This document shows, piece after piece, positions 2,787-20,000 of a stretch of DNA of 20,000 nt; position 1 is the first letter of the stretch, and the number at the start of each line of letters is the position of its first letter. The position numbers were made by a program, and so were the translations under genes. The stretch is from IMG/VR virus record IMGVR_UViG_3300028805_000071. One strand, written 5' to 3'. This stretch comes from an uncultured virus (IMG/VR IMGVR_UViG_3300028805_000071). Taxonomy: Duplodnaviria; Heunggongvirae; Uroviricota; Caudoviricetes. The notes beneath the pieces were generated by a model that was given only the letters and a program-made list of their open reading frames with translations, did no database searches and had not been told where the DNA came from.

Positions 2787-4514
2787 CTAATTCATAAACA
2801 TCCAATCTTTTGCATTAAACCGCTTATGTTTTCTATTCTCTTCTTCATGTTTAATATAATATAAACCATATTCCAACGCAGAGAATTTATCTTTTCGTAT
2901 TTTCTTATTTGCCTGTTTTAAATTAATATTTAATCCTTCATTTTCTTCACGCAAATTCAACATTTCTTCTTTTAAAATCGATGTAAGAGTAAATGGGCGT
3001 AAATATTCAGCTCTTTCTTCGGGCGTCATATTCTGGCCCACCTTTGTTCCTAATAATTTATTCTTTGCGTCTTTCTCATCAATTAAAAATTTAATTTTTC
3101 CAGCGTTTAATCTTGCTTGTACATTACTATGAGCGTCGCTGTTGATTGGTGCATTCGCTTTAATAATATATACAGCCTCTTGTTCAGTCTTTTTTGTCTT
3201 ATATTTATGATAAGAACCATCATTATCATTATAAATACCAAAATCAGGATATATATCCCCGGTAATAGGGTCTTCTTGCGACATAACCATCTCATCAATA
3301 AGACCAATACCAAGTCCATTACCATCTATAACCAATCTTCTTGCCTTATATTTATAATATAACTGCTTTAATTTAATCGCTTGATATTTAAAATGCTCAT
3401 CAGATAGTGTATAAATATTTACAACCGACGCAATTGAGTCTCCCATCGTTTGTGGATTTACTTTGAATACTATAGCAACTGAATCGCAGTCTTTACGACC
3501 AACGTCGACGCCAATAACATAATAACTTTGCGACCCACTGCGTTTAGAATACTCATATTCTGGCTTTTGGAGCTCGCGATTTCGGTCAAAAGCTTCTGCG
3601 CGGAAGAATGCGTCTTCGCTAGAGCCCGACCATTCAGATTCATACTCTCTAGAAAAGGCGGCGTCATTGAAAGAGCCGTCATTTTTAAGGTCTTGAATGA
3701 AATTTTTGCTTTGTAGACCCGTTAAAACAGGAATTCTTCAAGTTCCGCCCATTACAAAAGCTTTATCTGGCTCTGTAACCATCCAAACTAGGAATTGAAT
3801 GAGTTTATCATAACTAAAAGTGCCTTTTCAGCCAGCTGTGGTTACAAAAATTTGCGATTTATTTAATGTTTCATCATCGTGACGAGTTCCATCCATCGCT
3901 AAACGTGATACGTTCATAGTTGGTAAGATAACTGTAGATAAAATATCGCCATCTACGCCGACACACTCTTCAATTAAGCCTCCGTGGAAACGCTTACCAC
4001 GAGAACGCTCACTTGCGGCAACGTTTGTAAGCATCGAACCGCCCTTAAACATATAAATAACAGTATCTTTAGACTCACGTGTGCGTCCAGGACGTCTATC
4101 TAGCTCATTTTCAAAGGCTGGAATTAATGAACAAATTTCATTAACCTTATCTTTTGCGATACCAGCGGCCTGCTCTTTACCTCCAGAAGTAATAAACAGC
4201 TTACTACGGGGGTATAAAATACAACGGCACATTAAAATCATAATAGATAAGAATGATTTTGAATAGGCTCGAGGGAAAACCCCGTAGACATACTTATAAC
4301 GCATGGCCACTCGCAAGAAAATTCGTTGATAAAAATAAAAATGGAAGTTCTGCGGGTTGCCTTGCTCAAGCATAAAGTCTACAAATAAATCAGGGTATTC
4401 CCGCCAAAACGCAATATATTGACGAATGGCGGGTTTAACCGCTTCAATACGTTCTGGGGAAATACCTATTTTCTTTCGTTTCGTCGATAAATCTAATAAA
4501 TCTTGCAGAGCCAT
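2787..4514 (-). CDS. terL: Terminase large subunit, 575 aa with TGA at 3828-3830 and 3738-3740 read as Trp
   Basis: Walker A-like FPRAYSKS, Walker B GGLIEE, coupling motif VTTAG, then *KGTFSYDKLIQFLVWM...MGGT*RIPV...FSREYESEWSG, nuclease motif VIGVDVG, VIDGNGLG and KDKFSALEY. One continuous frame apart from two TGAs; ends in TAG. Confidence 0.92.
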
Positions 4515-5821: not shown

Positions 5822-6883
5822 TTATATGTTTATTGATGTTTTTTGTCCATTTCTGCAATTTTTACAAATAGAATAAAATCCGTCTTTACTTGTATTGTTT
5901 TTACTGAAGTAACGTGAGTGCGCCAATTTCACTTTACCGCAACGACTGCAGCGTTTATATTTGCCTTTTTCTTTAAAAGTATAATACCAATTAAGAAAAT
6001 ATTCTTGCGATAAGTCTGAAATTAAATTAGGAATTTTCTTGCGCCATAATGAAGAAATATATTCTAAGGAGTGGGTTGTTCCAAATTCTTCGTCTAAAAC
6101 TTCTTGAATGGCTTGATTAGAGAGTCCATCAATTTTTAATTCAGTAATACGTAAAAGTAAAGGATGCGATTGAAGAGCGGCCCAAGAAATTGTATCAAAA
6201 TCTTGCATGATACACCATAAATCACTTGTGGGGTGTTCTCACGCATTTTGCTTTAAATTAGAATAATTGCATAAGATACCAGAGCAACATCTAGGGTCAC
6301 ATAAACTAATCCCGCTCCAGCGCACGGTCCCATCGGCTTCAACCCATTCTTCACTTTCCAGCTTTACTGTGCTGGGAAGGGAGTAGTGAATTGAATGGGC
6401 ATGAATTAAATACTCGCTTTTAATTTGATATTGTTGTTTACGAAAGTCAATTAATGCTTTCTTGGCGAGATACTTATTACGACCGGTCGCAGTTGCAGAA
6501 ATCTTTTTCCATGCTTCAATGGCTTCTTGCACCTCCCGCATTCCCGGGAGGGTATCAATATCATGCTGTGTAATTTTTTGTTTTGGTTGGAAAAGGATGT
6601 GCTTATTATCATTTTTAATTGCATAAATACCATCTTCGCCATTCTCGAATTTATCAGCTAATGCTTGATAAGATGTTTCGCGTTTGTTGATGGTTACCAT
6701 GCGGTTTTCTGTCAGGATTTTTTTCTGTTTGCGTTCTTCCTTTTCCATGCAGAAAATTAGATAGTCAGCTAACACTTCAAGGTCATCATTAGTAAGGTCA
6801 GGATTCTCAGCGACAATTTGTTCTACATACTCCTTGCGCGCTAAAGAACTTTCTAATGTGTAATCCAATTTTACTGTTATCAT
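5822..6883 (-). CDS. 353-aa putative DNA-binding regulator (C-terminal HTH-like segment plus CxxC..CxxC finger; TGA 6239-6241 = Trp)
   Basis: ORFs 6239..6883 and 5822..6208 are in frame with bridge NYSNLKQNA*EHPTSDLWCIMQDFD. GGAGG RBS at 6891-6895. Contains ELKIDGLSNQAIQEVL...EYISSLW (HTH-like) and CSRC...CKNC. Confidence 0.7.
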
Positions 6884-12506: not shown

Positions 12507-12521
12507 AAAATTTGATATAAT
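12493..12521 (+). promoter_or_regulatory. Sigma-A promoter reading into non-coding DNA
   Basis: TTGAAA-17-TATAAT with extended TG. Confidence 0.6.
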
Positions 12522-12609
12522 ATTAATATAAAGAAGAGAAAATTTAAATATAAAAAAACCAAACTCTTTACCTTTCTTACACTCTCTTCTTCCCAGTTGC
12601 TGGGAGTTG

Positions 12610-12640
12610 GGCGGGGCCGCAGGCTCCGCCTTTTTGTTTT
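12610..12640 (+). terminator. Intrinsic terminator
   Basis: GGCGGGGCC-GCA-GGCTCCGCC hairpin followed by TTTTTGTTTT. Confidence 0.75.
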
Positions 12641-12677
12641 GGTAAAACTTGGGGTCGACGGGAGGGGGAGACAATAA

Positions 12678-12691
12678 CGAACACGCGTTCT
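12678..12691. promoter_or_regulatory. Firmicute-type LexA (SOS) box
   Basis: CGAAC-ACGC-GTTCT versus consensus CGAAC-N4-GTTCG. Confidence 0.55.
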
Positions 12692-12789
12692 TTTTTTGTT
12701 TTTTTCCCAAAAAACACCCCCCAGTATATACGTAGATATACCGGTGGCTCGCGCGAGCCAGCGAGGTAGGACCCGGGGGGTCGGGCCCT

Positions 12790-13990
12790 AAACAAACAAA
12801 CAAGCTAATGACACACAGGACATTAAACAAAATAAATTTTGTTAAAAGATAAGATTAAATACCAAAAGCAAACATAAATCAATTGTTTAAATAAATAAAT
12901 AACAATCAATACAATACTATAATGCATAGTCATCCACTACTGCTGCTCTACCCATGGCATGGCACAGTATACCAATAGTAGATGACACACAACACACTAC
13001 TGAGAGCTTGGCGCTGGGGCGGTCACCGTTGACGAGCGTGAAAAGTGCTGATTCGCGCAAGGAGAAGCTTTGCAGAAAAAATCGCACAACAACACAACAA
13101 ATGTAATACAATCATTTATCCTAAAACTCTAATACACCACGACAGTAGGGGCAATGCATGCACACACAGACAGAGGGGCAGCCAGGCTGGCCAGCCACAG
13201 CCAACGAGCAAACAACGAACATACAAAGAACAATAGATTAACACACAAGCAACACACAACACACAACACACACATAATGATATAATAATATATATAATAT
13301 ATATACATACACATAGGTATAGGGATGCCATGGGGTAGGGGTAGGGGGCGTGGTGTGGTAGGCACACAGTATAGTAACACAATAAGATAGATAATAAACA
13401 TATAATATAATACACAAACAGTAAACAGTATTCTATCTATTGGTTTCAGTATGGGTATGAGATATGTGGTAATGTAGTAATAATACCTAGACACGTAAGC
13501 TGTAGTGTATAGCTACACAGTACACAAGCAGGACACAACGTGTAACACAAAGGGTGAGACACACATAGATACATACACATACACACACAACAACAGACAC
13601 ACAGACAATCAACAACACAAGCAACACATACACAACAACAGATAGATAGATACACAACATACAATAATACATACACACAAAGAGATAGATAAGAACAAGA
13701 CAATAGACAACACAAGCAATCAACCAACAGACAAAGAGAAGATAGAATAAAAGATAAAAGAAAATAAATAGAAATAAGATTTGTTATTGTGTTTTAGTTT
13801 CAGGTACAGTGTATGGTATAGGTAGTATACCAAGGGGTAGTCTGCAGGTCTACTGGACAGGGTAGGTGCAGTGGGGCATAGACCTAATGGCCAACAGAGA
13901 GACAGAGAGAGAAAGAAGATAAAGAGATAATAAAGTATTAACAACAACACAAAGAATAATAATTGATATTTATATATGATATATTGCATG
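12790..13990. repeat. Strand-skewed low-complexity non-coding tract (CA/ACA/AGAT runs)
   Basis: e.g. ACACACAACACACAACACACACAT and ACACATAGATACATACACATACACACACAACAACAGACAC. Only C/V/Y-rich spurious ORFs; no RBS-led genes seen. Confidence 0.8.
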
Positions 13991-14265
13991 GCTGTGGGGC
14001 TGGGCCTGCCCCCGCGCCGCCCCCGGCCATGGCGGCGCGAGTTTTCGCTGTATACAGCCCGTGCATAAAATTTAACGCTTCACCGCGGTAAAGTGGTAAC
14101 GCGGTGAACTCCTGAAATTCAGCACTTTAACGCGGTGAAGTGCGAAAGACTTTAGCGCGGTGAAGCGTTAACGCAGTAAAGCAAATTTTTGTTTTTTGCG
14201 ATAAAAAGCAAAAATTTTACTTTTTCCGCCATGCTTTAGTGAGTTAAAGCGTTGAAGTCCGTCGC

Positions 14266-14283
14266 TTGTTAAAAATTTAACAA
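14266..14283. promoter_or_regulatory. Rex operator (clostridial type)
   Basis: Perfect TTGTTAA-AAAT-TTAACAA. Confidence 0.65.
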
Positions 14284-14400
14284 TGTTATAAGTATGCAAA
14301 AAAATGTATAAAAAAACTTTTAAAAAAAGTATTGACAAATTGCTAAAGGTATGATAATATATAATTACAAAAGGGAGAGAAAACAAAGAGAGGTAACAAG

Positions 14401-14683: not shown

Positions 14684-14697
14684 CGAACATACGTTCG
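14684..14697. promoter_or_regulatory. Perfect Firmicute LexA box
   Basis: CGAAC-ATAC-GTTCG. Confidence 0.75.
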
Positions 14698-14867: not shown

Positions 14868-15299
14868 ATGAGAATTTGGTTAGACATGGACGGAACAATC
14901 GCAGACCTTTACGGAGTAGAAAACTGGCTCCCTATGTTAGAAGCAGAAGACCCTACACCTTACGCAATCGCAAGACCGCTTGTGAGAATGAACATTCTCG
15001 CAAGATTGTTAAATAAGGCACAGAGAAACGGCTATGAAATTTGCATCGTGTCCGCACTCTCAAAGAACGGCTCCGCAGAGTATGGGCAGAAAGTAATCAA
15101 CGCAAAGTTAACTTGGTTACAGACCCACCTCGCAAGCGTAAAGTTTGACGAAATCCAGTTCGTATCTTACACCTACACAAAGAACAATGTAAATAGTGGA
15201 AATGATATTCTTTTCGATGATGAAGAGAGACACCTCACCGCTTGGACGGGTGAAGCCTACAACGCAAGAAACATTTTAGAGGTTTTAAGAAACCTCTAA
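14868..15299 (+). CDS. HAD-superfamily phosphatase, 5'(3')-deoxyribonucleotidase-like (143 aa)
   Basis: IWLDMDGTIAD (motif I), IVS (II), K..WL (III), ILFDD (IV); GAGGAG RBS. Confidence 0.8.
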   Translation: MRIWLDMDGTIADLYGVENWLPMLEAEDPTPYAIARPLVRMNILARLLNKAQRNGYEICIVSALSKNGSAEYGQKVINAKLTWLQTHLASVKFDEIQFVSYTYTKNNVNSGNDILFDDEERHLTAWTGEAYNARNILEVLRNL

Positions 15300-17320: not shown

Positions 17321-17511
17321 ATCCCAAGAACTTATTTGTAGGCAAGGCGACCGAAGCCATAAACGAAATCGATGAAATGAACAACGAGTGCGTTGAAGAG
17401 TATGGCGACAAGTATGCGGATTGTTTCCCCGCATTAGCCACCAAGAGGGTAGAAATTGACGGCAAGACCTACAGAATGAAAATCGAAATCACCCTCACCG
17501 AAATAAAGTAA
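17317..17511 (+). CDS. 64-aa hypothetical protein
   Basis: GAGAGGT RBS; terminator downstream. Confidence 0.75.
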   Translation: MNPKNLFVGKATEAINEIDEMNNECVEEYGDKYADCFPALATKRVEIDGKTYRMKIEITLTEIK

Positions 17512-17543
17512 AAATTACATTTTGACTGTATTTGTTTTCATTT

Positions 17544-17577
17544 GCCCCCTCAAGCGAGGGGGCTCCTTTCTATTTTT
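17544..17577 (+). terminator. Intrinsic terminator
   Basis: GCCCCCTC-AAGC-GAGGGGGC followed by a T-rich tail. Confidence 0.65.
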
Positions 17578-17817
17578 ATACATTTGGATGTATAAATATT
17601 TATGCATGCGTGTGCATATTCATTCGTGCTTTCACACGGTGAAGTGTGAAAGCAAATTTTTATTTTTTGCGATAAAACGCAAAATTTTGCCAATCCCATC
17701 AGCCGCGCGCCAGTGGCCCAGGCGAGCGGAGTTTGATTTTTTTGGGGCTTTGGCAAAATTTTACCCTAAAGCGACAGAAAGCGAAAATTTGCTTTAATTC
17801 ACTAAAGTGCTGAAGTG

Positions 17818-17843
17818 TTAGCACTCGCACCCAAGAGTGCTAA
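17818..17843. promoter_or_regulatory. CIRCE-like HrcA operator (8-bp spacer variant)
   Basis: TTAGCACTC-N8-GAGTGCTAA: perfect arms, spacer 1 bp shorter than the canonical N9. Confidence 0.6.
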
Positions 17844-17951
17844 TAACAAAAAATTTTTTTCGTAAATTTTTAAAAAGTGCTTGCATTTGGGTCTGTGATG
17901 TGGTAATATACTTATAGAGGGGAACGCAAATAATAGAGAGGAGAAAAGACA

Positions 17952-18074
17952 ATGACATACGAAGAAATCAAGGCTTACATCAACAACAAAATCGCCAATG
18001 GCGAACCGCTTCACGGATATGCGAGGGAACTCGCTATCGAGTTGGCTCTCAATGAAAAAGAGAGAGCCAACTAA
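17952..18074 (+). CDS. 40-aa hypothetical protein
   Basis: Promoter 17881, GAGGAG RBS; MTYEEIKAYINNKIANGEPLHGYARELAIELALNEKERAN. Confidence 0.7.
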   Translation: MTYEEIKAYINNKIANGEPLHGYARELAIELALNEKERAN

Positions 18075-18174
18075 AAAAGAGAAAAAAAATTCTCTTTTTT
18101 TTAAAAAAGTACTTGCAATCTGCTTTGTAATGTGGTAATATAATATCGGGGGGAACAAGAGAGGAGAAAATAAA

Positions 18175-18579
18175 ATGACTTACTACTTCGATATGGACGG
18201 CGTACTCGCTAACTTCCACAAGGCATATAAAGAAAACAAGGCAGTTGCACTCGACAAGGACGCAATGGCAAACCTCGAACCTTTTGAAGAGAATGTGGCT
18301 CTCGTAAATAACCTCATCTCTACTGGAATCAAGGTTTACATCCTCACCAAAGCCGCCAACGAAGATGGCAAGGCTGGAAAAATCGAGTGGCTTGCAAAGT
18401 ACATCCCCGCTCTTGACCTTGAAAACTTCATTTGCATCGTAGGGGCTGGCAAGAAAATCGACTACATCAGAGAGGATGGAATCCTCGTTGATGACGATAT
18501 GAAGAACCTCACCCCTTGGGCAAAGGCTGGCTTCGGCACCTACTTCGTAGAGGAGAAGGGTGCGGTCATCACCTTCTAA
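18175..18579 (+). CDS. HAD-superfamily phosphatase, 5'(3')-deoxyribonucleotidase-like (134 aa)
   Basis: YFDMDGVLANF, YILT, GKIEWL..Y, ILVDD...NL..W; GAGGAG RBS. Confidence 0.85.
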   Translation: MTYYFDMDGVLANFHKAYKENKAVALDKDAMANLEPFEENVALVNNLISTGIKVYILTKAANEDGKAGKIEWLAKYIPALDLENFICIVGAGKKIDYIREDGILVDDDMKNLTPWAKAGFGTYFVEEKGAVITF

Positions 18580-18588
18580 GGCAAACCA

Positions 18589-18614
18589 ACGGACGGGCAA
18601 CCGTCCGTATTTTT
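18589..18614 (+). terminator. Intrinsic terminator
   Basis: ACGGACGG-GCAA-CCGTCCGT followed by ATTTTT. Confidence 0.8.
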
Positions 18615-18639
18615 ATTCATGCTGATGTATAAAAATACA
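18606..18639. promoter_or_regulatory. Tandem ARG-box-like pair (ArgR/AhrC)
   Basis: CGTATTTTTATTCA-6 bp-TGTATAAAAATACA. The same 14+6+14 layout recurs at 14285-14318, 17569-17602 and 19664-19697. Confidence 0.55.
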
Positions 18640-18640
18640 G

Positions 18641-18654
18641 CGAACATACGTTCG
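18641..18654. promoter_or_regulatory. Perfect Firmicute LexA box
   Basis: CGAACATACGTTCG, identical to 14684-14697. Confidence 0.75.
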
Positions 18655-18834
18655 GAAAATTTTACATTTGTGCGATAAAATGCAAAATTTTGCCAAAGTC
18701 CAGCTCGCCGCCAGCGGCAGCCGGCGGCGAGATTTTTATTTTTTGCGGGATTGCGGAAAAAATTTGCGTTTTTGCGGAAAAAATGCGAAAAAACGCGATT
18801 TCCCAAAACTTTCACACACTAAAGCGTTAAAGTG

Positions 18835-18861
18835 TTAGCACTCACCCCAATCGGGTGCTAA
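18835..18861. promoter_or_regulatory. CIRCE (HrcA operator)
   Basis: TTAGCACTC-N9-GGGTGCTAA, one mismatch from consensus. Confidence 0.75.
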
Positions 18862-18931
18862 CAGAAAAAAATTTTTTAAAAAATTTTAAAAAAAGTATTG
18901 ACATTTCCAAGAGAGTATGGTAATATATAAT

Positions 18932-19037
18932 TGTTCCAAGGGAGAGAGCGGAAACGAGTACTCCCTCAGGTTTTACAAGGTTAGTCACCGCGGGTTTTGA
19001 CTGCAACACAAACCGAAACGATAGAGTGGCCACTCGA
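18932..19037 (+). ncRNA. Candidate ~105-nt structured small RNA
   Basis: Own promoter (18898-18926), no ATG-led ORF. Stems GGGAG/CTCCC, GGTTT/AAACC enclosing TAGTCA/TGACTG, and the palindrome GAGTGGCCACTC. Confidence 0.5.
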
Positions 19038-19090
19038 AAAATTTTTAAAAAACCCTTGACAGATAGCACCAAGTGTGCTACAATATAAAT

Positions 19091-19305
19091 GTAATGAGGG
19101 ATGCGGGGCAGAACCGCTGGTAGTCTCTTGAGTGAGACGGGTAAGACCTTCGACGACAAAGTCCTCGACCGCACGGAGTCCTGTTGTGCGGGATATAAAT
19201 GTGAACCAAGCCCTTAAGTGTGGCAACCCCTTCAGTAACTGGGTAAGGCGAAGAACCCCCCAAAGTGCTGAGAACGGATGGAATGGGGGACGGCAGGACT
19301 CCGTG
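19091..19305 (+). ncRNA. Structured ncRNA, paralog 1 (family not recognised)
   Basis: Own promoter, GC-rich, no RBS-led ORF, several stems, 16-bp long-range complement 19172-19187/19290-19305, motifs shared with paralog 2. Confidence 0.7.
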
Positions 19306-19371
19306 GAAAAGTTTTTCAAAAAAGTTTTGAAAAACGCTTGACAAATAGCACCGAAGGTGCTATACTATAAT

Positions 19372-19620
19372 CAAGGTAAGGGAAGTGAGAGCCGCGGAAG
19401 CCCCGTTAGGCACAGGTAGCCAAGTAAGCCTCTCCCCGATAAAGTCCTTACCACCGCAAGGGTCTCAGCGTTGCGGTATATAAGTGTGAACCAAAGCCCC
19501 CAGGCGGTTGGAATAGGCAAAGGGGGTACACATCGCTGTAGAGGCACCGCAAAGGCTCCGAGGTAAAGGAGAGAGCGAACGGGACTCGGAGCCGACCCCC
19601 AAAAACTTGGGGGCTTTTTT
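19372..19620 (+). ncRNA. Structured ncRNA, paralog 2 (family not recognised)
   Basis: Own promoter and terminator (CCCCCAA-AAAC-TTGGGGG plus T6, 19596-19620); same stem order and conserved motifs as paralog 1. Confidence 0.7.
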
Positions 19621-19770
19621 ATTTGCCGCCCGGCTTCGGTCACGCTGGGCGGCATTTCGTTTCTGCATATCTATGCAAAAAAATGTATAAAAATTTTTTT
19701 GAGAAACCCCTTGACAAAAAATCCCAAAACTGTTATAATAATTATAGAAAAAAGAGAGGAGACCAAGACA

Positions 19771-19986
19771 ATGTTGAAGGTAAACACAAATGTAAATACT
19801 GAAATCTTAACCGAAGATACTTATAATTATGTAACAGTATGGACAAGAAGAAACGGTGAAAAGTATGTAACCGCTTACGGAGATGACCTCACAGATGTTA
19901 GAGAACAGGGGTATTTCCACTGGGCTGTGATTACCGACTACGAAGGCAACTTCGAAGTAATGCCCACCACAGAAATTACTTGGTAA
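19771..19986 (+). CDS. 71-aa hypothetical protein
   Basis: Promoter 19711, GAGGAG RBS. Confidence 0.75.
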   Translation: MLKVNTNVNTEILTEDTYNYVTVWTRRNGEKYVTAYGDDLTDVREQGYFHWAVITDYEGNFEVMPTTEITW

Positions 19987-20000
19987 AAAAATAAAAAAAG

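Follow-up and report, generated by a model that had tools for sequence, protein, structure and literature searches.

Two adjacent phage RNA genes as putative members of an uncatalogued structured-RNA family

Two adjacent copies of a structured RNA family

Within the 20,000-nucleotide stretch of the uncultured virus IMGVR_UViG_3300028805_000071 analysed here (hereafter the window), two neighboring plus-strand elements, copies A and B (Table 1), almost certainly belong to a real family of structured RNAs. The best explanation for them, which we hold with roughly even confidence, is that they are two independent genes for members of an uncatalogued phage structured-RNA family. An earlier note on this DNA had described two tandem paralogous noncoding RNAs with covarying stems, and a letter check of the window found every string quoted there at its given position.

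An exact scan for the 17-letter strand shared by the two copies returned 57 viral, 103 genome and at least 120 metagenome loci, with ~390 metagenome stretches estimated for the exact motif alone. The viral and genome matches were mostly chance, as expected for 17 letters, and true relatives were told apart by blastn and covariance models. The first model, R1, was seeded with a single relative and a hand-drawn structure, the window copies not being in the seed, whereas the second, R2, was built from the family alignment with both window copies included. In the window, R1 matched precisely the two copies and R2 likewise only these (83 and 100.7 bits, respectively, for copy A over 19094-19209; 37 and 77.3 bits for copy B over 19376-19494). 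The similarity of the two copies is far beyond chance. Across the window and the 57 viral loci, R1 gave 20 matches at E <= 1.6e-4, another 24 corresponding to the bare motif only (E 0.4-1).

The signature of hairpin P5 was found over all collections in 77 of the matches listed, two of them in the window, and 63 of these were distinct. R1 scored 61 of the 63 at E <= 1e-4; the remaining two, a 5'-truncated member and another whose 5' domain is short, were recovered by R2. A second scan using the motif of hairpin P4 instead of the 17-mer yielded 13 loci, 12 of them new, all matched by R2 (E <= 3.4e-6). Taken together, motif scans and covariance models place at least 75 distinct members of the family in phage contigs, metagenomes and phage-like contigs of metagenome-assembled genomes (MAGs). 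In the 12 members recovered through P4, the 3' end of the 17-mer varies (AACCAG, GAGCCAA and others), and in two of them (L300 and L312) inserted hairpins split the strand; its conserved part is AUAUAA plus AUGUGA.

Consensus fold, covariation and coding potential

The consensus runs from a 5' domain (helices P1-P4) through hairpin P5 and a conserved junction strand to a 3' H-type pseudoknot (S1/S2). In total it has nine helices and two pseudoknots. Hairpins P3 and P4 project from a junction that P1 and P2 close, and a near-invariant GUAAGA links P4 back to P2. The strands of the 3' domain follow the order S1-5', S2-5', UGGAA, S1-3', linker, PK1-3' and S2-3', with PK1 formed between the long loop of the H-type pseudoknot and the P5 loop. 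The conserved core spans ~165-215 nt, or up to ~250 nt with the extra hairpin and terminator of copy B; in subtype A, represented by copy A, there is also a hairpin (P6), and some members have an insertion separating S1 from S2.

Pairing was compared with shuffled and slid-partner controls in three alignments. For the 5' domain and P5 (A9, model-fitted, 59 distinct rows), the paired fraction of cells was 91.9%, whereas shuffles gave 71.3% and slid partners 41-55%; compensatory change occurred in 18 of 22 pairs. The corresponding values were 97.1%, 84.7% and 35-60%, with 16 of 27 pairs compensatory, for the 3' half of subtype A (A8, plain MAFFT, 21 rows), and 98.6%, 91.4% and 32-51%, with 8 of 24 compensatory, for subtype B (A10, plain MAFFT, 9 rows). 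In none of the three did any of 500 shuffles reach the observed pairing. Since the shuffle control leaves relatedness in place, the slid-partner control and the plain-MAFFT alignments constitute the stronger evidence. With 92-99% of cells paired and compensatory changes in all three alignments, the earlier claim of covarying stems in a functional-looking RNA family is upheld.

At the level of individual helices, P6, S1, S2 and PK1 are 93-99% paired in A8, where 14 of their 21 pairs are compensatory and one S1 pair occurs as C-G, G-C, A-U and U-A. The four outer pairs of P5 are invariant in all 59 of 59 rows, and its inner pairs covary. The PK1 strands co-vary across subtypes, as GUCCUG/CAGGAC, GCCUGA/UCAGGC, UCGCUAUAG/CUAUAGUGA, UCGCCACG/CGUGGCGA and GCCGUAUGG/UCAUACGGC. 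Other approaches were less informative. Applied to the 5' half in a plain MAFFT alignment, RNAalifold recovered P5 only; the 5' domain required the hand-seeded model. An alignment-free loop test was suggestive but weak, a score of at least 6 being reached by 62% for the own loop versus 16% for foreign loops. A total-base-pair solver for S1, S2 and PK1 did not beat mononucleotide shuffles (mean 16.9 versus 14.5; 17 of 63 above the best control), and the subtype alignments were used in its place.

A non-RNA explanation of the similarity, whether by a small conserved protein gene, by a regulatory site acting at the DNA level or by chance, would draw on the reverse-strand open reading frames (ORFs) of 67-112 aa that overlap the two copies, and on the presence of at least one open frame over 167 nt in 55 of the 63 members. 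The family, however, shows indels of 1-2 nt inside the RNA core, and its compensatory changes preserve helices, not codons. No anchored frame is open in all members, the best being open in only 33 of those tested (at most 63), no Pfam family reached threshold for six overlapping ORFs, and the covariance-model matches are highly significant. We regard a non-RNA origin as extremely improbable, and on these sequence features the coding or artefact reading appears close to refuted.

Two subtypes side by side

Copies A and B align at 73% column identity, chiefly across the first ~135 nt. By blastn, copy B shares 90.7% identity over 118 nt with one relative (L046), and copy A 85% identity over 81 nt with another group (L053). 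Because each is closer to the RNAs of other phages than to its sister copy, the two are best read as old subtypes lying side by side. The description of the copies as tandem paralogues thus holds in that they adjoin and belong to one family, but not if taken to mean a recent tandem duplication. Among the R1 matches in the window and the 57 viral loci, two copies within the flanks were seen at no locus other than the window's. The PK1 strands and 3' domains of A and B do not cross-pair, and the presence of two subtypes in one phage might provide either a higher dose or two specificities.

Complementarity between the P5 loop and the 3' end, proposed in the earlier note for both copies, stands for only one of them. 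In copy A the pairing overlaps the family PK1, and a 12-bp complement there (19173-19184 with 19293-19304) corresponds to PK1 continuing into the S2 3' strand. In copy B the partner was wrong: GGGTCTC/GGGACTC (19460-19466 with 19581-19587) exists as letters but is not the conserved pairing. Across nine B-type sequences (copy B and eight relatives), the partner of the P5 loop is CGCTG-T-AGA (19534-19542), with 72 of 72 cells paired and three of eight pairs compensatory, and the closest relative, L270, breaks the 19581-19587 pairing while keeping the family PK1 through a compensatory change. The extra hairpin of copy B (19554-19593) is common only to L270.

For copy A, the 3' domain was read by eye against the type A alignment (A8). 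P2 and P3 are weak or ambiguous in this copy, and folding gives an alternative hairpin at 19103-19117. No terminator follows 19304, and the 3' boundary given here is that of the last conserved helix.

Table 1. Coordinates of the two RNA copies, their promoters and their structural parts in the window.
Feature	Position	Strand	Basis or detail
Promoter of copy A	19056-19084	+	TTGACA, 17 nt, TACAAT, TG extension
RNA copy A, subtype A	19091-19304	+	start predicted from promoter spacing; last conserved helix ends at 19304
Copy A 5' domain	19096-19166	+	family covariation of P1-P4
Copy A P1	19096-19100 with 19162-19166	+	family covariation
Copy A P4	19123-19127 with 19134-19138	+	family covariation
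Copy A near-invariant GUAAGA	19141-19146	+	family alignment
Copy A GACAAAGTCCTC	19155-19166		ends the 5' domain
Copy A hairpin P5	19169-19191	+	stem CCGCAC/GTGCGG, 19169-19174 with 19186-19191; 11-nt loop 19175-19185
Copy A PK1 5' strand	19178-19185	+	within the P5 loop
Copy A stretch common to both copies	19188-19213		
Copy A conserved junction strand AUAUAAAUGUGAACCAA	19193-19209	+	motif common to the family
Copy A 3' domain	19210-19304	+	by-eye reading against A8
Copy A hairpin P6	19210-19224	+	
Copy A S1	19227-19230 with 19285-19288	+	
Copy A lineage-specific insertion, 43 nt	19231-19273	+	
Copy A S2	19274-19278 with 19300-19304	+	
Copy A UGGAA	19279-19283	+	
Copy A PK1 3' strand	19292-19299	+	pairs with 19178-19185
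Promoter of copy B	19338-19366	+	TTGACA, 17 nt, TATACT, TG extension
RNA copy B, subtype B	19373-19620	+	predicted start to end of terminator T run
Copy B 5' domain	19375-19452	+	folding and family covariation
Copy B P1	19375-19381 with 19446-19452	+	
Copy B P2	19387-19391 with 19430-19434	+	
Copy B P4	19409-19411 with 19419-19421	+	
Copy B GUAAGC	19424-19429	+	
Copy B GATAAAGTCCTT	19438-19449		
Copy B hairpin P5	19454-19476	+	stem CCGCAA/TTGCGG, 19454-19459 with 19471-19476; 11-nt loop 19460-19470
Copy B PK1 5' strand	19463-19470	+	within the P5 loop
Copy B stretch common to both copies	19473-19499		
Copy B conserved junction strand AUAUAAGUGUGAACCAA	19478-19494	+	motif common to the family
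Copy B 3' pseudoknot domain	19497-19550	+	alignment A10
Copy B S1	19497-19501 with 19522-19526	+	
Copy B S2	19504-19508 with 19546-19550	+	
Copy B UGGAA	19509-19513	+	
Copy B PK1 3' strand	19534-19542	+	bulged T at 19539; alignment A10
Copy B extra hairpin	19554-19562 with 19585-19593	+	loop contains GGGACTC
Copy B intrinsic terminator	19596-19620	+	7-bp stem, then CTTTTTT

Promoters, terminators and RNA-library coverage

A nucleotidase-like gene (18175-18579) and a small ORF (19771-19986) flank three short transcription units, each headed by a sigma-70-type promoter with a TG extension. The promoter at 18898-18926 carries 10 of 12 consensus letters, and those of copies A and B carry 11 of 12 each, in agreement with the earlier claim that each RNA has its own promoter. 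The single strong terminator of this block is at 19596-19613 plus its T run. Across the family, 53 of the 63 distinct members have their own sigma-70 promoter, ending 77-148 nt (mostly 101-114) before the junction strand. A terminator begins 52-138 nt past the junction strand in 18 members, and in 19 a fresh promoter, within 60-136 nt, is found downstream without a terminator. Judging from the host-type consensus promoters and the region of small same-strand genes in which they lie, both RNAs would be expressed early.

The first of the three units (18898-19040, ~110 nt, without an ORF) sits directly upstream of copy A and is covered in the RNA library X8 by contigs of depth 51-108. Among the collected loci it has no relatives except the near-identical record G001 (locus L001), and it was rejected as a family member.

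Of 20 public runs that contain part of the stretch, six are RNA libraries prepared from the guts of sheep or other animals. We compared four of the RNA runs, each from a different study, with 17500-20000, using assembled contigs only. X8 holds one error-free contig at 19053-19584 with a depth of 113, against 9.3 and 6.6 for the contigs of flanking genes, a contrast that offers a weak hint of expression. Other contigs span 19357-19611 (X20), 19166-19307 and 19386-19585 (X19), and 19166-19591 (X16), and contigs of several other family members also occur in RNA runs. Both copies are thus covered by RNA-library contigs, which can include DNA, and we take this as hinting that they are expressed and that transcription continues from A into B. 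The contig ends at 19584, 19585, 19591 and 19611 were considered as RNA 3' ends and dropped, these being ends of contigs only and one of them adapter. No weight was given to the lack of cover at 17500-17984 and 18583-18843 in the RNA runs. The X16 and X19 contigs match copy A from 19166 on with two differences and have a different 5' domain upstream, which suggests relatives with swapped 5' and 3' RNA halves.

Phyletic distribution and genomic context

By the sequences recovered, the family is found only within one clade of phages, 120-180 kb in size, that infect Clostridia-like hosts. The MAG bins of true relatives are labelled Clostridia, Acutalibacteraceae, Eubacteriales, Faecousia and Bacillota, and the only match among 151 genomes of the candidate host order was the phage contig of one family-bearing MAG itself. 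A single copy was found in each of five related genomes searched, three of them at least 95% complete, and 6-15 kb separate the RNA from the terminase gene in four relatives as well as in the window. By terminase, the closest named phages are 120-142 kb phages of Geobacillus, Enterococcus and Alicyclobacillus, together with the gut phage Phass-1. R2 found no match at E <= 0.01 in any of the four examined (Geobacillus E3, Enterococcus VRE9_4, Phass-1 and Alicyclobacillus KKP_3916; best 0.087), and blastn and megablast against 50,697 named phage records returned nothing but 70 nt of promoter-like sequence in a Streptococcus phage (E = 4e-3).

Neighboring proteins are mostly unassigned and unrelated between phages, except for a nucleotidase gene nearby in some genomes (two of six contexts above the Pfam threshold and two more below). 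The window itself encodes two paralogous 5'(3')-deoxyribonucleotidase-like (NT5C) genes (14868-15299 and 18175-18579), and three relatives have an NT5C-like gene ~2 kb or less from the RNA, scoring above the Pfam cut-off in L288 and below it in L289 and L290. Shared gene order is more likely to account for the nearby nucleotidase than a clue to a ligand.

Perfect Gram-positive LexA-type boxes (CGAACATACGTTCG) occur between early transcription units at 14684-14697 and 18641-18654, the latter directly upstream of the RNA block; the window has four such boxes at one mismatch or fewer, versus 0.24 expected by chance. Similar boxes with GC palindromes flank relatives, an arrangement that fits the RNAs being exchangeable cassettes. 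In four relatives (L053, L045, L006 and L266) the next unit begins ~150-200 nt past the RNA; ahead of its unassigned gene stands a conserved leader hairpin (GGGUUGCGACC...CGCAAGA), which may be a second conserved RNA element. In two others (L164 and L259) the RNA's own promoter is absent and a shared sequence (...GCAUAGGCGGUGGUC...) precedes the RNA instead, possibly another co-transcribed RNA.

Comparison with known RNA families

The earlier note could not assign the RNAs to a known family, and covariance-model searches of Rfam agree. Rfam 15 (4227 models) gave no match in the window at gathering scores. At E <= 10 over 18600-20000 it returned only noise (14-22 bits against cut-offs of 45-100), and at E <= 0.1 in 15 diverse relatives only neighboring tRNAs. 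ARAGORN found no tRNA or tmRNA in the window; in relatives, tRNAs adjoin the RNA and do not lie inside it. Word searches of the literature gave no description of this RNA among the entries listed, and searches with four 11-letter strings of the junction strand gave only unrelated papers among the matches listed. A catalogue of 10,006 viral candidate RNAs may list the family motif unnamed; six family contig numbers were not found in those of its supplements that were searched (PMC10690425).

Several specific identities were considered and set aside. The AAAGUCC that recalls bacterial RNase P RNA is the P1 3' strand and is variable in relatives, no Rfam match was obtained, and no CR-V-like strand complementary to it, such as would pair with CR-I in the long-range P4 helix of RNase P, was seen by eye. 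A riboswitch was rejected for the lack of an expression platform, of a consistent class of downstream gene and of an Rfam riboswitch match. HDV-like ribozymes combine P1, P1.1, P2, a P3 hairpin bearing L3, and P4 in a nested double pseudoknot and cleave themselves 5' of P1. The order of S1 and S2 resembles their P1/P2, but only 5-13 unpaired letters (UGGAA...) separate S2-5' from S1-3', with no P3 hairpin and no Rfam match. For a base-pairing small RNA or antisense role, no recurrent targets emerged in the window or five MAGs. In the window no second site was found for the complement of the junction strand, and the MAGs gave nothing above a reversed-pattern control except the RNA genes themselves. 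The earlier suggestion of a guide scaffold is weakened by the same lack of a recurrent target in the five MAGs, and by the inserted hairpins that split the conserved strand in some relatives. A start-stop mini-ORF (AUG/GUG-UGA) acting as a release-factor trap linked to TGA recoding was dismissed, the RNA being present also in TAG-recoded and unrecoded relatives; the UGA of the candidate is lost in L300 and L309.

Against this background, comparison with characterized systems shows partial likenesses. HK022 put RNAs and Bacillus EAR are cis-acting antitermination RNAs with simpler folds that act only on the transcribing polymerase. The family RNAs share with them a promoter-proximal folded RNA that heads a phage early unit and can occur twice per phage, but differ in having nine helices and two pseudoknots, in their count per genome, and in what follows them, often a terminator or a new promoter. 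T4 RNAs C and D (species 1 and 2) are stable, small and adjacent, in or near the tRNA region of a large virulent phage. By description, to which this comparison is limited, they likewise form a pair of adjacent small RNAs in a large phage, whereas the family RNAs have their own promoters and usually lie outside a tRNA cluster. H-type or nested pseudoknot topologies characterize SAM-II and preQ1-II type aptamers and HDV-like ribozymes. The strand order (S1-5', S2-5', S1-3', long loop, S2-3') and the conserved letters in joining strands are common to these and the family. In the latter, however, the long loop is paired to a distant hairpin loop, and P3/L3, P1.1, an expression platform and an Rfam match are absent. 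The packaging RNA of phi29, pRNA, is also an early-promoter phage RNA built on a three-way junction with specific loop pairings, but the present phages package with a large terminase and their RNA has a different overall architecture and no Rfam match.

ROOL and GOLLD are phage RNAs of unknown function that are often near tRNA islands and self-assemble (PMC12286853). The family resembles them in being phage-encoded, multi-pseudoknotted, abundant in rumen and gut data and sometimes directly beside tRNA genes. Membership in either was rejected: the core is ~165-215 nt (copy B ~250 nt with its terminator) against ~600-800 nt, with more than 500 nt required, no sequence or structure match exists in Rfam, and tRNA adjacency is rare. 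A tRNA gene lies directly downstream in just 4 of 63 members by ARAGORN, plus L308, and a general linkage to tRNAs was likewise discarded. By its sequences, the family thus appears uncatalogued and would in kind join orphan phage RNAs such as ROOL and GOLLD, as a much smaller, differently folded class.

Proposed function and alternatives

We propose that host RNA polymerase would start at the consensus promoter ~5-12 nt before helix P1 and that the transcript would fold its 5' domain, with the P1/P2-closed junction and P3/P4, followed by P5 and the purine-rich junction strand. At the 3' end, S1 and S2 would then form the H-type pseudoknot, its long loop pairing with that of P5 (PK1) and clamping the junction strand into a compact core. 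Covariation shows the helices of this scheme, whereas its three-dimensional packing is a prediction. With its two ends enclosed in helices, the RNA is likely to accumulate in a stable form and, at an early stage of infection, might act in trans by binding or decoying a host macromolecule via its near-invariant core. That it acts in trans in any way, as a free RNA, we judge an even prospect; that it is specifically a free, stable, early RNA binding a host component is a tentative proposal, given somewhat less than an even chance. We rank trans action first because the RNA has its own promoter, often has its own terminator, is followed by unrelated content, occurs once per genome and has buried ends.

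Several observations weigh against this proposal. The folding energies of copies A and B are not better than those of shuffles (z = -2.0 and z = -0.8, respectively). The apparent invariance of the junction strand was partly imposed by the first 17-mer search. RNA-library contigs may contain DNA and cannot show ends or levels, and the X8 contig begins inside promoter A and bridges both copies, so that it fits read-through or DNA no less than two separate RNAs. The host partner bound in trans is one that we infer. Furthermore, copy A and 19 of the 63 relatives have no terminator, a ribosome-binding site and ORF follow within ~105 nt in 5 of 63, and tRNA genes lie directly downstream of the members named above. 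Members running into an ORF or a tRNA would be the 5' part of a longer transcript, making a cis role possible.

Such a role, in which the RNA is a cis-acting 5' leader that modifies its own polymerase or shields the transcript from a 5'-exonuclease, would have precedent in the processive antitermination by nascent RNA of HK022 put and Bacillus EAR. The RNA always stands at the very start of its transcription unit, a position directly after the promoter that fits put and EAR. The terminators of 18 members would be open to read-through, 5 members continue directly into an ORF, tRNA genes come immediately after at least 5, and an RNA-library contig bridges copy A into B. We nevertheless consider a cis leader rather unlikely. 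There is one copy per ~120-180 kb genome among many early promoters, downstream content is unrelated between phages, and the new consensus promoter close downstream in 19 of 63 members means that read-through is not required. The fold is also far more elaborate than put or EAR and matches neither in Rfam, if these are included in the Rfam set. A new ribozyme, self-cleaving or acting on another RNA with the clamped junction strand as its catalytic core, would account for the many near-invariant junction nucleotides held within covarying helices and two pseudoknots. Its phage context, sometimes adjoining tRNA genes, and an S1/S2 topology recalling nested-pseudoknot ribozymes are also compatible with catalysis. 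Yet the RNA matches no known ribozyme family, lacks the P3/L3 hairpin that HDV-like ribozymes have between S2 and S1, and shows no conserved processing site, with RNA contigs spanning the whole RNA, and on balance we find catalysis distinctly unlikely.

A compact pseudoknotted core with conserved junction letters is equally aptamer-like, and a strong promoter and two copies in the window phage would suit a free sponge for a small molecule, for example a host signalling nucleotide, rather than a riboswitch. With no expression platform, no consistent downstream gene, no riboswitch family match and no ligand suggested by neighboring genes, this seems improbable. We view with similar doubt an RNA-only assembly, in which PK1 forms between molecules to build dimers or rings, by analogy with the cages of ROOL and GOLLD, self-assembling phage RNAs often near tRNA islands (PMC12286853). 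Covariation cannot separate intra- from intermolecular pairing, and the A and B loop pairs, which do not cross-pair, would be compatible with such assembly. The RNA is, however, 3-4 times smaller and matches neither family in Rfam, and the placement of the PK1 3' strand in the S2 loop, ~60-110 nt from its partner, favors pairing within one molecule.

Other features of the window

The window derives from a tailed phage, with portal, large terminase and sigma-factor-like genes on the minus strand and a long series of small plus-strand genes behind consensus promoters. Ten promoters between 6940 and 19739 match the sigma-70 consensus perfectly (12/12) and carry a TG extension; nine are on the plus strand, and they head short early-region units. 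The portal, large terminase and sigma-factor-like genes (782-2398, 2787-4514 and 5822-6883, minus) are interrupted solely by in-frame TGA (1, 2 and 1, respectively), and 24 of 28 small early ORFs end in TAA, which suggests that the late genes read TGA as a sense codon. A homing/HNH endonuclease-like ORF (2415-2777, minus) lies between the portal and terminase genes. The same genes in relatives carry in-frame TGA (G003), in-frame TAG (G002 and G005) or neither (G004 and G006). A link between the RNA and stop-codon recoding was dropped, the RNA being present in TGA-recoded, TAG-recoded and unrecoded phages alike. A ~1.9-kb stretch at 12510-14400 is without a credible ORF, CA-rich and of low complexity, with GC-rich palindromes, and repeated CACTTTA...TAAAGTG-like half-sites lie near 14040-14270; the stretch could be an origin, a terminal region or further RNA genes.

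Implications for phage and RNA biology

Complex folds with many conserved junction letters and nested pseudoknots have usually proved to be ribozymes, ligand sensors or the cores of RNA-protein machines. The clamped, near-invariant junction within the double pseudoknot might be an active pocket, making the family either a new natural class of ribozyme or the first RNA-made phage sponge for a host signal or immune messenger; we rate this as unlikely. If the sponge reading is true, the RNA would be a counterpart of protein sponges made at the onset of infection, and with an active pocket the two subtypes of the window phage would cover two specificities. The family is common in rumen and gut viromes, stands behind a consensus promoter and is present in RNA libraries, and its core of ~165-215 nt is small enough for probing, crystallography, scaffolded cryo-EM, and self-cleavage and binding assays. 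In a phage clade that alternates standard, TGA-recoded and TAG-recoded late genes, the shared early RNA is one of few constant non-protein features, and a role in host takeover would be open to testing.

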